From assembly GCA_029717555.1 (NCBI GenBank), contig JAMDHS010000016.1, positions 124,001-188,000 of the forward strand: a stretch of DNA of 64,000 bases, read 5' to 3'. The translations under genes and the position numbers were made by a program. This stretch comes from Peribolospora baueri (taxonomy: Eukaryota). Below the pieces are notes generated by a model. That model worked only from the letters and a program-made list of their open reading frames with translations. It did not search any database and was not told the DNA's origin. The stretch's first letter is position 1, and the number at the start of each line of letters is the position of its first letter. Positions 256-8,025 of the stretch are shown here, one piece after another.

Positions 256-2411
256 TCAAGCGCCCAGCCTGAGAAGCTCCCTGACGGCCATCGCGGCCTC
301 TCCCTCCTCCCCGACCGTGTAGCGCACCTCGCTCTTCTTGAGCCCATTGAACTGGGACGCGGCGCAGATGGTGTAGGCTCCCATGTCCTCAAATGCTAGC
401 CAGTCGCCCACGTCCAAGTCCGCCGGCAGGTAGGCGATCTCGCGCACGCAGTCGATCGAGTCGCACGTCGGGCCCCAAACGGAGCAGGGGATGAGAGCGC
501 CCGATGCGGTCTTTCCCGTCGTCTTATCCTCCCCTTGGACGTCTTCGTGTCTAGTCCAGCTGCTGTTGAAGCGACGGCGAGCGTCGAGGAGCTCCGGGGA
601 GAGACCGGGGGCGGCGATGGAGGGGTCGTAGACAAAATTGCCATGGAGTGTGAGCACTTTCGGGTGCACGACCTGGTGATCAAACATGATGCAGTTGAAC
701 GCGCCGTAGACTCCTTCGTTGGCGTAGTCTGATGAGGAAGGAAGATGACCAAGAAAGAGGAAGAAGCAGGGACGGGAATAGCGAGATGAGTTTGCGAGTT
801 GATGACCCATACGGCAGCGGAGACAGGCGGACAACTTACACATCACCAGAGGCTCTTCCTTCGCCTCGTCAGCTTGACCTTTGGTCTCGATCTCGGTCTC
901 GTCAACGAGAGCAGGAGGCTCAGGCCTCGCACTCTCCACGACCTCGATTTCCTCCGCTTCGGACACTCCTCCTCTTCCAACGTCCTCGTCGTCCTCGATG
1001 CCCAACACGCTCCTCCGAGCGATGATGTTGGCGGCAAGCGTGAAAGCCTTGCTAACGTAGTACCTCCCTGGTTCGGCGATGATCCTCACCCCGTCGGGCG
1101 AGTCGGCCTCCGTGCCCCCGGGGCCGAAGAGGCTGTCGGGGAAGAACTCCTGCAAAGCCGGACGGAGCACTTGGGCGATCTTCTCGAAGTTGTCGTGCCC
1201 GTATCCACCTCCCACGTCAAGGAGGCTGAATCGGTAGCCGGCGTCCTTACCCATGTCGAACGCAGCGCGAGCGCGTCGGAGAGCGTCGATGAAGCTCGTC
1301 GGGTCGTAGCAACCCGACCCAACGTGGAAGCTGACGCCCACGACGTCGAGATCAAGTTGCTTGGCGGCACGGAGGAGACGGGGCACGTTCTCGAGAGGCG
1401 AACCGAACTTGAGGCCGAGTTTGCAAAGCGACTTGGAGTCATCAGTGAGGATACGTACGACGAGCTGGGCACGAGGGTGGAAGCGTGCAATCTTGCGTAG
1501 CTCGTCGACGTTGTCGAACGTCGTCAGACGGACGCCCGCCCTGGCCGCGTGGCGGACGAAGGAACCCGCCTTGCAGGGGTTGGCGTAGATGATGCGAGAG
1601 GGGTCGACGCCGAGGTCGAGCACCGACTGGATCTCCCCGTTCGAGGCGCAGTCGAATCCGGCCCCGCACGCCGCGAGCAGGCGCAAAACATACGGGTCGG
1701 GGTTGCACTTGACAGCTAGTAGGAGAGAGGCCGACATTAGGCCAGTCATCCGATCAGCGGCGGCCCACCAGCACATCCGGCACATAATCAGCCTGCTCGA
1801 TCGAACGCGGGCTTACCATAGAAAGGCTCAACACGAGGGAGATGCTTCATCCACCTCTGATGCTGCATATACACCTCTCCGAGGTCAGCAATGAAAAATG
1901 CACTCTCGCCGTTCTCCTCACAGCTGTGGAGGTCGATGTCCCTCAGGTAGCTATGCAGTCGGTCGCGCACCGAGCCATCGTAGACTGGCTCCAGCGGTGG
2001 AGGAACTGGAGACCAGGAGGCAGCGCGTCCGACTCCAGGGCTCTTCGCGACAGGAGTCGCAGCGCCTGAGGTGAGCTCCAGCTTGGTCGGACTGAGACAG
2101 TCGGGAGTAGGAGGCGCCGTAGGCGGGAGGATCTGCTCGACGAGTTGCATAGTTGCGGTGGCGGTGCTCATGTTGAGCTTGGTCTGAGGTTCGTTGGCGG
2201 CGAAGTTCTTGTTCGTGGTTTGAATGGTTTTTGTAGACGTCGGCAAAGGAGACGAAGGCGGACGCGGCCTGTTCACCTCCTGCCCGTCATCAGAGCGAGG
2301 TGGGCAGAGGGGAGCCATGAGCCGGCCATGTTGGTTGTTCTGTTGGAAATTGGACTCGAGATGGGAGACGTGGATGTCAGGAGGAACGGCAACGATGTCG
2401 TCAGATCCCAT
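256..2411 (-). CDS. SPE1: Ornithine decarboxylase (3 coding exons; introns 1816-1716 and 839-729; start at 2411 or a downstream in-frame ATG such as 2171)
   Basis: Splicing gives the PLP-lysine motif PFYAVKCNPD, plus FDCAS, SFHVGSGC, LDVGGG, IAEPGRY, GVYGAFNCIMFDH, WGPTCDSID and MGAYT, all diagnostic of ODC. Confidence 0.96.
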
Positions 2412-2961
2412 CGGCTTTTCTGGAAGAAGATCCAAGCTGTGTGCTCGGTGGTGGATGGCGGGACAAGTAGAAGGGAATGAATGCCGAAGATGGAAGAAAG
2501 CTGGTCGGATCGATGTTGCTGAAGCCGGTTGCTATCGATACGAAGAAGAGACGTGTGTGACGGGTATGGAGAAGATGACAGATGAAGCGCGTAGGCCGAA
2601 ATGATAAACACTAGCAAGAGTAGGAGATTGGGCTGCATTGGAGAATCGGACAGACAACGATCGGTATGGAGGTCCGTCAGTTACGAGGTGGCCAAACGAC
2701 ACGAGCGGTACGGGTACACCAATGAAGAAGAGGCCGAGGGGTGAGATGACGCACTGATGACGAATGCTAAAGGAAGCTAGAGCTCCTCGAGCGAAGGCGA
2801 GACGCTGCGTGCGGACGCCCGCTCTTGAGCTCTTCAGTCGGGGGAGGGGGTGTTCCTCGCTTACGGATGCGAGGAACGAGGGCCGGAAGAGGGAATGTCT
2901 TGTTGAAAAGACGCCGTGGCGCGAAGAAGTCGTGCCGATGTTTTGGAAGATGTAGGCCAAC

Positions 2962-3134
2962 TTACGGCGGCCTGGAAAGGAGAGTGCAAAGGGGGTTATG
3001 AGGACTGCTCACACGTCCGCACGGGGACGGTGCTAGCGGGAGAGGAATAGGCGAGCGACTCACTTGAAGGATCCCGTCCGGGCGTTGGAACCGGCGGAAA
3101 GGAGATTGAGACGCAAGTTCTTCCGCGACGGAAT
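2962..3134 (-). CDS. Putative non-AUG (AUU) upstream conserved coding region of the ODC mRNA; 26 aa IPSRKNLRLNLLSAGSNARTGSFKPP-stop, with intron 3063-2972
   Basis: The minus strand reads GCC-ATT-CCG at 3137-3129 and stays open for 23 codons. A GTGAGT donor at 3063 and a pyrimidine-rich CAG acceptor at 2974-2972 then lead to AAG CCG CCG TAA. This matches the described architecture of ODC-homolog uCCs. Confidence 0.72.
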
Positions 3135-3673
3135 GGCGGGCGAACTGAAGTGAGCGAGAGGGAGGGGATCAGGTGCGGCGCGTGCGAGAGGGCGTCGGCG
3201 AAAAAAGCGAGGACTTCGACTACCGGGGTGACTTTTTGAGGAAGCGGGAAGAGGCTGAGATTGCGAGTGTTATCTGGATACCGCCTTCGGCGATCTGACT
3301 TGATCCCCGGTGCTGGAGGAAGATGCTGGAGGGAGGTGAGGTGGAGGAGATGAGGATGACGGGGCGACAAGAGAGCGAGTCGGGCAACGACGAGGCAGTG
3401 ACCGGCAAGACCATGAGAAGAAACGGCCATCGGCGGCCATCGGCGGCAAGAAAACGCCGCGTCGAAATGGAAGCGAATTTCACACGACTGTGGGCGCATC
3501 ACATGCAGTACTTGTGTGGTCCACGTAATCGGGCCACGTGACGTGCTCCACCCCGACGTTGCACCGCCTCGAACCGGACATGGCGCATGGATGATTGGAT
3601 TTCTCCAGCCTGAGCCTCATGAGCGTCGCTCCTTCTAGCCGTCGACGCCGCCACGGACAGGACGGCGGACAAG

Positions 3674-5630
3674 ATGGAGTCCATCGTCGACGCAAACGGC
3701 GTCTCACACACACCCGTGACCGCCAGCCGCGCTGATGACCCACGGTCGCCCCCTTCGCCCGCCCATGGCGGCGCTTCGACCGTGGACCACCCGTTGAGCT
3801 CCTCGTCGCCGTACGTCTATCTCTCCTCGTCTACCTTTCACCGCGTCTTCCACTGCCGCAGAACGGGATCCAAGGTCTCCTATGCCGACGTTGGCGCACG
3901 AGACGGCCCGCTCATCCTGCTCCTGCCGCCGAGCGGGTGCAGTAGGTGGGTGGGCGTCCTGATGGACGGGTATGCCAGGGCTCGCGGCGTCAGGTTGTGA
4001 GTCGGCCCGCGACCTGGCTCCTCCCGTCCTCCATGGCAGATCCAGCTTGGTAACACCAGGAAACGGAAACGGATTTATCTTGTTTCTCTTCAGACTCACC
4101 CCGGACCGGCCAGGACAGGGTGCGACGCCGCGGTGCCAGCTCGAGTGCCGCGTCGAGGTGGCCACGAAGCAGGCCCTCAGCTTACTCGAACATGTCTGCA
4201 ACGTTGAAAACGGCGATATCGGCGAGGTTTCCCTCATGACTCACAGCGGCGGCATATAGTGAGCACGGGGAACGGTTGCTTGAGTTGGCTTTCCGCGCCC
4301 TCTCACTTTGCCTTCCCCTCGCCTCTCGCTTTTTTACGCCCTAGCTTCCTCCTCCCCACCTATTTGGCCTTGCTTGGACAAGGTCCTGATGCCGATCCCT
4401 CGCTGCCTCGCCCTGCGCCGCGCATATTCCTTCTCAGCCCGTTCGTACCCACCTGCGTGTCGGGACAGCGATACTTCCCCCTCTTGCCCACCGCACTCGT
4501 CTCGAGCGGATACGTGGTCCTGCCGCCACTGTTATCCGCGAGCAAGGTCCTTGTGGACACGGGCAGGAAGCTTGGCACCGGCTGGACGACACTGAAGGGC
4601 GCCGTGGGCTCCGCGGGCTCTTTCTCCGGTTCGCTCCTCGGCAGTGAGGTGGACGAGGAAGAGGAGATGGCGGCGGAGGCGGAGCGACGGGCGCGGCTAG
4701 GCGAGAAAAGGCGGAAGGGAATCGAAGAGGAGAGGCGGAGGCGGAGAGAAAAGAGCGAGCGTAAATATCCCACCGCCGACCTTCACCCGCCATTCCGGTC
4801 TCAGGCTCGATTCAAGCTACGCGGTGACCTATTCGCCGCGTGGGCTCAGCGCCGCATGGCGGGGTTGGATCAGGATAGGCCGCCACAGACGTCGCTGTCT
4901 TTTCCGCGCCCGCCTTCCTCGACGACCTGGACGACTTCAGTAGGCTCAAACCGATCATCGCGGCCTTCGAAGCGGACGTCGACAACTTCGATCAGCCTGT
5001 CGCACTCCGAGGCGCCATCGACAGCAGCCAAAGAGTTTGCGGTGGACCTCCTCTTCTCTTTCCTCTCCGCCGAGGGGATGTGGGGCATCTCGCAGGAGCA
5101 CTTGCTCTGTTTGGGACGGGCTAAGGACGGCGGCCTGGGAAAGCTCGTGGAGCGCATCCGTGGAGGATTCGAGGACATTGCGGAGGCTTGGAGGGCCGAT
5201 CGCAGTGAAGGAACGAGTGGTAAGGGGAGCACGGATCATGAAGGGGGCGGAGAGCGGTCGGAGGGTGCAAGGTTGGAGGTGGAGATTTGGTGGGCTAGCG
5301 GGGATGGTATGATACCCAAGAAAGGCAGAGGTGAGAGGGACCTTGTCGTCTCCTCCAAGCATATGTGTCTCGCCACACGCTTGACATCTGTCCACTTTTG
5401 TCCCCCCCGCGGCCCCTCCCACAGATTGGCTCGACGACCTCCTCCGCTCCGCGAACCTCAACGACGCCATCTGCTTCATCCGCCACGAGCTGGGCGGGGG
5501 CGTGGCACACGACGTGCCGTTGAACACGCGAGACGTACTCGGTATGGCATACGACTGGGTTTTGAAGAGACAGGAGCGGAGCGAAGATACGGATTGTGGA
5601 GGCGGAGGGGAGGCTCGTCCGCCTTCGTGA
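3674..5630 (+). CDS. Uncharacterised alpha/beta-hydrolase-fold protein (multi-exon)
   Basis: VSYADVG...LILLLPPSGCSRW, PDRPGQG, a nucleophile-elbow-like THSGG, WWASGDGMIP and a C-terminal HD in the last exon (DWLDDLLRS...VAHDVPL...PPS-stop at 5630). Confidence 0.7.
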
Positions 5631-6363
5631 GGTGTGAGGTGAGTGGAAAGCTAGTCAACCCCTTTGCGCTGGCCGTCGTGGGGTTCACCTGGGCTCCTTT
5701 TCACCGATCAAGACGGGGGAAGGCGCCAGACGGGGTTTGGCCGGTGACGACGAACCCTCCATAGAGTGTAGTTGCAGTGCGCGTGTGTCCATCGTTGGTC
5801 GTGTATTTGCCGACATATGAGCCTCTAGATTTGCCGTTTGCTGCCTTTTACGCGGAGACGACCTATCCTCTGCCCCTGCCATCCGTCGGAGACAAATGGA
5901 GCCGATCCTTAAGGAGGTTCAGTAGAAGCACAGGCTGCTCGCCCGGATAAAAAGCCCACACCGAGCGAATTTCATTTGCAGCTCAGCCTGTCCGTGGCCA
6001 TAGCTATTAGTTCTAAGCGCCGGGCAAGTGTGCGGTCGACGTTGTCGAGAGTGTATCTGCCTGCCTACCTACGTTGGCAATTCCAGTTTCAGTCAGTCGA
6101 TGTTAGGGTGACGTCGTCCGTCTGTCCGTCTGAACTCGCCCGGAGTGAACGACCGGACGCAATCACGCGCGACCGGCCACTCGGCTCGCCGATCCGGTTC
6201 AGCCGCCGCCCCCGCACCGTCACTTGAAAAGCGCATCCCATCGTCCGTCCATCGTCAAAACCACAGTCTGTCCTTCCAGCATCCTTCTTCGCTTCCACAT
6301 CCACCTCCTTCAACCCGACACTTCCCCTCCCGCCACCTCGTTTGACCGCTTCGCTTCTCAACC

Positions 6364-8025
6364 ATGTCCCCCATTCCCCAAGGCAAGCAGGCCGTCCTCG
6401 CCAAGAGGGATGACGATGGTGAGCCGGATGTCGTGCTTCCCGTCGCCGTTCGATGGAACGAACGAGGGCCGTGCGCTCACTCTATCTTGCGCCGTTTCTC
6501 TCGCACGCCGTCTTGCCACTCACCCGTCAGTCGTCATCGTCTCTGCGCTCCGCACGCCCATCACCAAGGCCAAGAAGGGCGGCCTTGCGCAGGCGTGCCA
6601 GGAGGACATGCTTGCCGCCGTCTTCAAGGGCGTGATCGCGCAGTCCAAGGTGGACCCCAAGCTGGTGGAGGACGTCGCGGTTGGAAACGTCCTTCCTCCT
6701 GGTGGAGGCGCCACCGTCGCCCGCATGGCCGTCCTGTACGCTGGCTTCCCCAACTCGACCGCCGTTAACACGTTGAACAGGCAGTGCTCCAGCGGTCTCG
6801 CCGCCGTCAACCAGATCGCCAACGAGATCTCCATGGGCCAGATTGACATTGGCGTCGGCGCCGGTGTCGAGTCCATGACCATGAACGTGAGCAGACCGTT
6901 CGCTAGTGCTCGTGTGGTAAATATATCGAGAACTGACCGCCCCCCTTCCCCTGCCCCGCCCGCTTATTCCGTTCAGTACGGAGCCGGTGCCATGCCGGCC
7001 AAGATGTCCGAAGCAGTGATGGGCAACTCCGAGGCGACAGACTGCCTTCTTCCCATGGGCATCACCTCGGAGAACGTGGCGGCCAAGTTCGGCGTCACGC
7101 GGGACGCCCAGGACGCTTTCGCCGCCGAGTCCTTCCGTCGCGCCCTTGCGGCTCAAAAGGCCGGCAAGTTCGAGAGCGAGATCGTTGAGGTAGTCTATGA
7201 GGACGAGGATGGCAACACCCGCAGGGTGAACAAGGACGACGGCTTGCGCGAGGGCGTCACGAAGGAGGGCCTCGCCAAGCTCAAACCCGCCTTCTCCAAG
7301 GACGGCACCACTCACGCTGGTAACGCCAGCCAGGTCTCCGACGGCGCCGCCGCTGTCCTCCTCGCCCGCCGCTCTGTCGCCAAGAAGCTCGGCTTGCCCA
7401 TCATCGGCAAGTACGTCACCGCTGCCGTCGTCGGCGTGCCTCCCGAGATCATGGGGTGCGTATACGGTGCGGCGGAAGGGATGGAAAGCGATCGATCGAT
7501 CGAAGCTGACTTGTTGTCCACGTCTCCACGGCATTCCTTTCACTCATTCTCCTCGCATCTCGTACTACGACGACGACGACAGCGTCGGTCCCGCTGAGGC
7601 GATCCCCAAAGTACTCGCCAAGACGGGCCTGAGGAAGGAAGACGTGGACATCTACGAGATCAACGAGGCTTTCGCCAGCCAGGCGCTCTACAGCATCGAA
7701 AAGCTTGGCCTGGACAAGTCCAAGGTCAACCCGGTCGGTGGCGCCATCGCTCTCGGCCATCCTCTCGGATGTGAGCGGCGCCTTTCTCTTTTTTGTCCCT
7801 CGTCGTACTTGAATGCCCTTTGTCGAAGCCCGAAAATTTCAACTCGTCTCACGCCTCCAACCTTCCCTTCCACTCCACCTGTTCTTTTGTCCTTCTTCAG
7901 GCACCGGTGCCCGCCAGATCGCCACCGCACTCGCAGAGGCCAAGCGAGAGAACAAGAAGATCATTTGCACGAGCATGTGCATCGGAACCGGCATGGGCAA
8001 GGCGTCCATCATCGTAAATGAATAA
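6364..8025 (+). CDS. POT1: 3-ketoacyl-CoA thiolase (multi-exon)
   Basis: [19 protein letters not shown] (catalytic Cys), [32 protein letters not shown] and MCIGTGMG. Confidence 0.95.

Follow-up and report, generated by a model that had tools for sequence, protein, structure and literature searches.

A candidate AUU-initiated, intron-split upstream frame ending in Pro-Pro-stop ahead of ornithine decarboxylase in Peribolospora baueri

A short reading frame that lacks an AUG lies on the minus strand of a 64,000-nt stretch of Peribolospora baueri DNA (the window), ahead of the gene for ornithine decarboxylase (ODC). As read from the DNA sequence, it would start at an AUU codon, cross one predicted intron and end in two proline codons followed directly by a stop. 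We consider it probable that this frame is a real, divergent element of the upstream conserved coding (uCC) kind already known from ODC homologues, carried here by an ODC mRNA of Ustilaginomycotina type. This kind has been known since 2008. Passages of a review (PMC2811004) describe the uCCs of ODC homologues, Basidiomycota included, as starting in good context at non-AUG codons, most often AUU, and as having two neighbouring prolines close to the C-terminus, and state that the several groups arose independently. The start of the window frame, ATT 3134, is a non-AUG, near-cognate codon with a good base at position -3. Two adjacent prolines near the C-terminus are present if a 92-nt intron is spliced, or if the start is at 3072 or 3048 in unspliced RNA. 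The frame is on the same strand as ODC at a distance of 551 nt from the ODC ATG, within the longest ATG-free gap of the window.

The putative start codon (3132..3134, minus strand, as are all features of the leader and of ODC given below) stands in the context GCC-ATT-CCG-TCG-CGG-AAG with G, a purine, at -3. The first coding piece (3064..3134) comprises 23 codons and two bases (AA) of a lysine codon. It is followed by the predicted 92-nt intron (2972..3063), which has the donor GTGAGT (3063-3058), a branch-like CTCAT/TAAC approximately 27 nt before the acceptor and a pyrimidine-rich acceptor, ...TTTCCAG, that ends at 2972. The last piece (2962..2971), G-CCG-CCG-TAA, completes the lysine and adds Pro-Pro and the stop, the proposed stall site. 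Translation of the predicted splice gives 26 codons with the C-terminus Phe-Lys-Pro-Pro-stop. The original prediction had described an AUU-initiated 23-codon frame, a canonical 92-nt intron at 3063-2972 and an FKPP-TAA end, and every coordinate, together with the spliced 26-residue peptide, was reproduced. It had not mentioned four features that enter the argument below, namely a TGA within the donor (3062-3060), a GTAAGT over the TAA stop, the codons ATT 3048 and ATC 3072, and an ATG at 2638.

When ten kinds of near-cognate codon were sought from the upstream in-frame TAA at 3272 to the end of the frame, ATT 3134 proved to be the sole one in its own frame. The Pro-Pro-stop is likewise the only one in the leader. 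One other leader frame has Pro-Pro near its end (2766-2677); it was rejected as a rival, being without a near-cognate start that bears a purine at -3.

The stretch that we take as the 5' leader (2639..3413) is free of ATG between ATG 3414 and ATG 2638. Counting both strands, the window has 1,682 ATG-to-ATG gaps (mean 76 nt, 99th percentile 372 nt), and this one of 776 nt (3414-2638) is the longest; shuffled copies of the leader stretch had zero ATG in 0.15% of 2,000 trials. Such strong depletion, with the upstream frame mid-way in the stretch, is the hallmark of a long leader that ribosomes scan. We reject a hidden protein gene or a known RNA in the leader, because no Pfam family was found for open reading frames (ORFs) over the leader in the other frames and on the other strand, including the ORF 2999-3616, and no Rfam match was found within 2300-3800.

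The downstream gene had been named as ODC in the original prediction, and the protein comparisons agree. It occupies 256..2411, with exons at 2411-1817, 1715-840 and 728-256 and the initiating ATG at 2411. The spliced translation has 647 codons plus the stop and no internal stop, and both introns are canonical, with lengths of 101 and 111 nt. Exon 2 falls in Orn_Arg_deC_N clusters, the nearest of which is mostly basidiomycete, and displays 68-73% identity to Ustilaginomycotina ODCs, the best protein matches (genera Sympodiomycopsis, Jaminaea, Parajaminaea, Tilletiaria, Tilletia, Moesziomyces, Sporisorium and Ustilago). A long N-terminal extension, encoded by exon 1 and poorly conserved, carries P-P-T-A-P-P-T-P (about 2105-2130), and the Ustilaginomycotina ODCs carry P-P-T-A-P-P-S-P. 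Since the best ODC matches are from Ustilaginomycotina and the N-terminal motif is common to them, we place the host as a smut-type (Ustilaginomycotina-type) basidiomycete with no close relative in the protein collection searched. No fused copy of an upstream frame was seen in the N-termini of 12 related ODC proteins.

A scan of metagenome contigs with exon 2 provided 80 fungal ODC loci, of 40-72% identity, with which the leader could be compared. In many unrelated loci a sequence ending Gly-Glu-Pro-Pro-stop (GEPP-stop) occurs approximately 650-910 nt upstream of the conserved VKCNP motif, and from these loci a frame of 25 codons was rebuilt, I-[TSP]-D-Q-x-R-N-x-D-L-R-L-L-T-L-x-W-S-S-V-R-G-E-P-P-stop, which we refer to as the mushroom-type family. 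The GEPP-stop motif is present in half of the loci (40 of 80); among the 64 with 1,000 nt or more of upstream sequence, 37 have it. A strict parser recovered the complete frame from 33 of the 80; with looser criteria, pieces of its exons were also picked up in L008, L021, L022, L023, L044 and two truncated loci, L012 and L033. The frame is absent from L006, L028/29, L067, L077 and the entire L045-L066 lineage. The members of that lineage, which is nested in the GEPP-type clade, have in place of the ATT...GEPP frame a short AUG-initiated upstream ORF (uORF) with Leu-Leu-Pro-Pro, M-I-Y-D-C-L-L-P-P-(L-L-P-P)-x-V-P-stop, found in L045 about 355 nt before VKCNP; the Pro-Pro is lost in L059.

Conservation of the mushroom-type frame is pronounced. 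The length is 25 codons in 27 of the 33 parsed loci, and these 27 loci provide 22 distinct versions for codon statistics, the six parsed loci of other lengths being excluded. Every one of the 22 starts with ATT and has A at -3, and fifteen residues are invariant (Ile1, Arg6, Asn7, Asp9, Leu10, Arg11, Leu12, Leu13, Leu15, Trp17, Val20, Gly22, Glu23, Pro24 and Pro25). Out of 25 columns, 20 vary at the third codon position, 12 at the first and 7 at the second, and pairwise codon differences number 1,749 synonymous against 985 non-synonymous. The invariant ATT, the invariant residues and the bias to synonymous change argue that the family frame is translated. The near-constant length is compatible with a spacing constraint. 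In these respects the rebuilt family matches the account of Basidiomycota ODC-homologue uCCs given in passages of the review (PMC2811004), the same account that bears out a statement of the original prediction that non-AUG uCCs accompany ODC homologues in this phylum.

The family frame is itself split. In 31 of the 33 parsed loci (for example L003:4083-4270, L009 and L018) two introns of 52-78 nt interrupt it, the first after codon 15 plus two bases and the second inside the Gly22 codon in phase 1, 11 nt ahead of the stop. Between them lies a micro-exon of 17 nt that codes for W-S-S-V-R. In L016 and L037 both introns are absent and the same peptide is encoded, which confirms the splice reading of the family. 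The base following the stop is C in all 33 loci (TGAC in 20, TAAC in 9 and TAGC in 4), with AGGAC often next, and this suggests that the termination context of the family frame is under selection. The frame always lies within an ATG-free stretch that extends 102-198 nt upstream of it and 159-434 nt (median 327 nt) downstream. A motif, A[AC]CTCC[GA]C, occurs at a fixed distance, 101-132 nt upstream of the ATT, in 10 of 27 distinct family leaders, all of one sub-clade, and may be a start-site or promoter element; it was sought in the window and is absent there.

The window frame resembles this family in architecture. Both start at ATT with a purine at -3, G in the window and A in the family, within an ATG-free ODC leader, and both end Pro-Pro-stop, after 26 codons in the window and 25 in the family. 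Each peptide has Leu-Arg-Leu at its centre and, ahead of its end, Arg...Gly, and Pro is the second residue of the window peptide as it is in three of the 22 family versions. An intron is placed just before the last codons, 7 nt (predicted) before the stop in the window compared with 11 nt in the family. Spacing in the leader is similar. The stop and the next ATG are 324 nt apart, within the family range, and the ATT follows the last upstream ATG by 280 nt, more than the 102-198 nt of the family. Among the family invariants Ile1, the Leu-Arg-Leu, the Gly near the end and the Pro-Pro can be aligned. To judge similarity apart from the features by which the frame was discovered, the first residue and the final Pro-Pro were removed and the interior was aligned globally to the family members. 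The best score is 18. Scores at least this high came from 3 of the 107 other ATT frames, from 229 shuffles out of 5,000 and from 117 of 5,000 random 26-mers, corresponding to p of about 0.02-0.05.

A number of points weigh against the frame being a real element, and we set them out together. A profile hidden Markov model (HMM) built from 18 distinct family peptides and searched with hmmsearch against 2,088 window sequences gave the spliced peptide 0.2 bits and E=67, placing it approximately 124th of 2,088 with only LRL aligned. The window peptide holds no Asp, Trp, Val or Glu, so that Asp9, Trp17, Val20 and Glu23 of the family cannot be matched. Its predicted intron falls in phase 2 of a Lys codon and not in phase 1 of a Gly codon, and its stop is followed by G (TAA-G) where the family has C without exception. 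Nor is a GEPP frame universal, the motif being absent from 27 of the 64 loci whose upstream sequence is long enough. In the ODC tree the window branches outside all 49 basidiomycete-type loci (support 82/92 and 81/89), and that set contains no relative near enough for a conservation test. ATG 2638, with the out-of-frame ORF that it opens, would itself repress ODC unless spliced out. A liberally defined near-cognate frame ending in Pro-Pro is found in 21 of 128 one-kb strand-bins of the window. Finally, the splice 3063-2972 is predicted from sequence and we infer the transcript start upstream of 3134, and these two steps each admit an alternative that is weighed below.

There are further differences from the family. 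One intron is predicted in the window where the family has two, and the host is Ustilaginomycotina-type, with an ODC branching outside all mushroom-type loci. The tree position fits a different subphylum, which would explain how the peptide could have drifted. A tblastn search of the 24-residue first piece against the 80 metagenome loci returned noise only. The window frame is, on these comparisons, not a member of the mushroom-type sequence family; the architecture is common to both and homology is not proven. The original prediction had pointed to basidiomycete ODC leaders for comparison and had interpreted the frame as a feedback element. The comparison yields an architecture held in common with mushroom-type loci and no sequence match, four invariant residues being absent; the interpretation is partly supported, by the ODC gene, that architecture and the ATG-depleted leader.

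Could such a frame be an accident? The leader might be real and the spliced AUU...Pro-Pro-stop frame a chance arrangement within it, with ODC controlled by the AUG uORF at 2638, by leader length or structure, or by antizyme acting on the protein. Two counts on both strands of the window address this. The strict definition (ATT start, 20-30 codons, Pro-Pro-stop end and at most one canonical intron of 45-150 nt) gives 8 frames in 128 kb, two of which use the upstream frame's own stop; they fall in 6 of 128 one-kb strand-bins, a number that drops to 3 when a purine at -3 is required. The liberal definition, which produced the 21 bins noted above, admits seven near-cognate starts, 15-40 codons and Pro-Pro or Pro-Pro-x at the end. 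Overall, such a frame occurs in 2-16% of 1-kb stretches. The sequence is rich in GC and proline codons, with 19 Pro-Pro-stops in 128 kb. The upstream frame alone is unusual, not decisive. In nine control ODC leaders without the family motif, 2.2 kb each (L006, L028, L045, L053, L055, L059, L065, L067 and L077), an ATT...Pro-Pro-stop frame was found in none.

The non-significant HMM match, the liberal count, the composition of the window and the loci without the motif all favour an accident. The rarity of the frame under the strict definition with a -3 purine does not, nor do the uniqueness of its Pro-Pro-stop in the leader and of its near-cognate codon in the frame, or a length, start codon and intron placement that mirror the mushroom-type family. 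The interior similarity, moreover, is independent of the discovery features. A chance rate of 2-16% taken with a roughly independent interior similarity of 2-5% makes pure accident unlikely, and we regard a coincidental frame as a minor possibility, although the most serious of the alternatives.

ATG 2638 deserves comment in its own right. No other ATG separates the upstream frame from the start of ODC, and this one (2636..2638) opens an out-of-frame ORF of 121 codons that runs past ATG 2411; if kept in the mRNA it would be strongly inhibitory. CAG follows it directly (2633-2638), a pyrimidine tract precedes it and CTGAC (2678-2686) is located approximately 45 nt upstream. These features make the site a candidate 3' end of a second leader intron whose removal would take the ATG with it; ATG 2638 may thus mark the 3' end of such an intron, ending at 2633. 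Candidate donors are GTGCGT near 2753, GTAAGC near 2866 and GTAAGT at 2965.

The 92-nt intron may be considered next. Were it unspliced or only partly spliced, the frame from AUU 3134 would end after 24 codons, F-K followed by the TGA 3062-3060 within the donor, and would contain zero prolines, leaving Pro-Pro-TAA (2970-2962) to be reached only from ATC 3072 or ATT 3048. Both codons do read to that stop in unspliced RNA, the latter as a 28-codon frame, and ATC 3072 has a purine at -3. However ATC is a poor initiator, ATT 3048 carries C at -3, and the donor GTGAGT and acceptor TTTCCAG are canonical. The predicted length is also near that of the two ODC coding introns, and 31 of 33 family loci carry an intron at almost the same position. 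We therefore hold intron retention to be improbable. Another canonical donor sequence, GTAAGT (2965-2960), lies across the TAA of the upstream frame. Its use after the 2972 acceptor would produce a 6-nt exon that still codes for Pro-Pro, and a far longer frame with no Pro-Pro-stop; this seems unlikely.

The in-frame TGA carried by the donor GTGAGT allows a further reading. Intron retention gives a proline-less uORF of 24 codons, and splicing joins on Pro-Pro-stop 7 nt further, so that a Pro-Pro-stop sensor might exist only in spliced RNA. Combined with a peptide unlike the mushroom-type frame, which in this scheme points to a separate origin, it would mean that an AUU...Pro-Pro ODC sensor arose a fifth time, independently, in smut-type fungi. 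We offer this as a speculative and doubtful proposal.

Another possibility is a transcription start site downstream of 3134, in which case the frame would belong to the promoter and the pyrimidine-rich stretch without ATG would be a fungal core-promoter tract. Pyrimidine tracts often precede fungal start sites, and the sense strand of 3412-2638 is 64% pyrimidine; the long distance from the last upstream ATG to the ATT, above the family range, fits as well. Against this, the depletion of ATG continues unbroken for 280 nt upstream of the ATT, avoidance of ATG on one strand is not expected of promoters, and the family frame is always inside such an ATG-free gap. A promoter origin is very improbable in our view.

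A translated leader element remains the preferred reading, and other systems inform on what it might do. One of these is the uCC of vertebrate AZIN1. According to parts of the review (PMC2811004), it has an AUU start in good context, initiation at the AUU is enhanced by spermidine/polyamine, and repression of the main ORF needs C-terminal residues; an extract of a second review (PMC9788402) gives its stall motif as Pro-Pro-Trp (PPW) at the end of the frame, relieved by eIF5A. The window frame is alike in its AUU start, good context and Pro-Pro-containing motif at the end. It differs in that the prolines are its last codons, with no Trp following, and in having no sequence relation to the AZIN1 uCC. 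The host genes differ also; AZIN1 is the inactive paralogue of ODC, whereas in the window the gene is that of the enzyme itself.

Another comparison is with three distant metagenome loci, L074-L076, each with an ATT-started 22-codon frame ending T-Q-P-P-stop (L074:1589-1657, L076:672-740 and L075). Upstream of the ATT two versions differ by frame-breaking indels. These frames probably belong to the 'Zygomycota' uCC group, for which the review passages give 22 codons (PMC2811004). They share with the window frame an ATT start, short length, Pro-Pro directly before the stop and a position in an ODC leader, and they differ in having no intron and an unrelated peptide, the ODCs being 55-56% identical to window exon 2. 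In a low-GC, distant ODC locus, L070/L071 (56% identity), an open frame ends E-S-F-K-P-P-stop, followed by C, 416 nt before VKCNP. The last four residues are identical to those of the window peptide; an ATT frame of 18-36 codons was sought there and none was found. A literature search for an ODC uORF with an intron or AUU in Ustilago or Basidiomycota gave nothing specific beyond the sections of PMC2811004 already cited; PMC5487733, judged by an extract, concerns cpc-1.

By analogy with the AZIN1 uCC, a mechanism can be proposed, for which we infer that transcription begins upstream of 3134, that the 92-nt intron is removed, that the AUU serves as start of translation and that there is a response to polyamines. 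Most scanning ribosomes would bypass the weak AUU 3134 and go on to the AUG of ODC. A small share would initiate at the AUU and translate 26 codons, over one spliced junction, to the Pro-Pro-stop. High polyamine levels would slow peptide-bond formation and termination at this site, both of which require eIF5A. Because no sense codon follows the two prolines, slow termination would add to slow formation of the Pro-Pro bond in producing the pause. A paused ribosome would block those scanning behind it and form a queue, which would raise initiation at the AUU approximately 75 nt upstream, and ODC output would fall.

Beyond the leader, a thiolase gene is present on the plus strand at 6149-7594 (Thiolase_N, E=8e-76). 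Long GC-rich open frames, for which no Pfam family was found, occupy the 2.7 kb that separate this gene from the ODC leader.

The kind of element proposed here is already known, and the gain would be one of breadth, not principle. With no AUG, 26 codons and an intron that splits it, the frame shows why such frames escape annotation, and the rebuilt mushroom-type frame, with its invariant ATT, 25 codons, 17-nt micro-exon and C after the stop, is usable as a search model. If the sensor were made by splicing, then splicing of the leader intron would decide the polyamine sensitivity of ODC translation. If the element is real, its bare Pro-Pro-stop stall site would be a minimal natural case for the interplay of eIF5A, polyamines and termination, and polyamine feedback through an upstream frame without a standard start codon would extend to the smut-type branch of the basidiomycetes.

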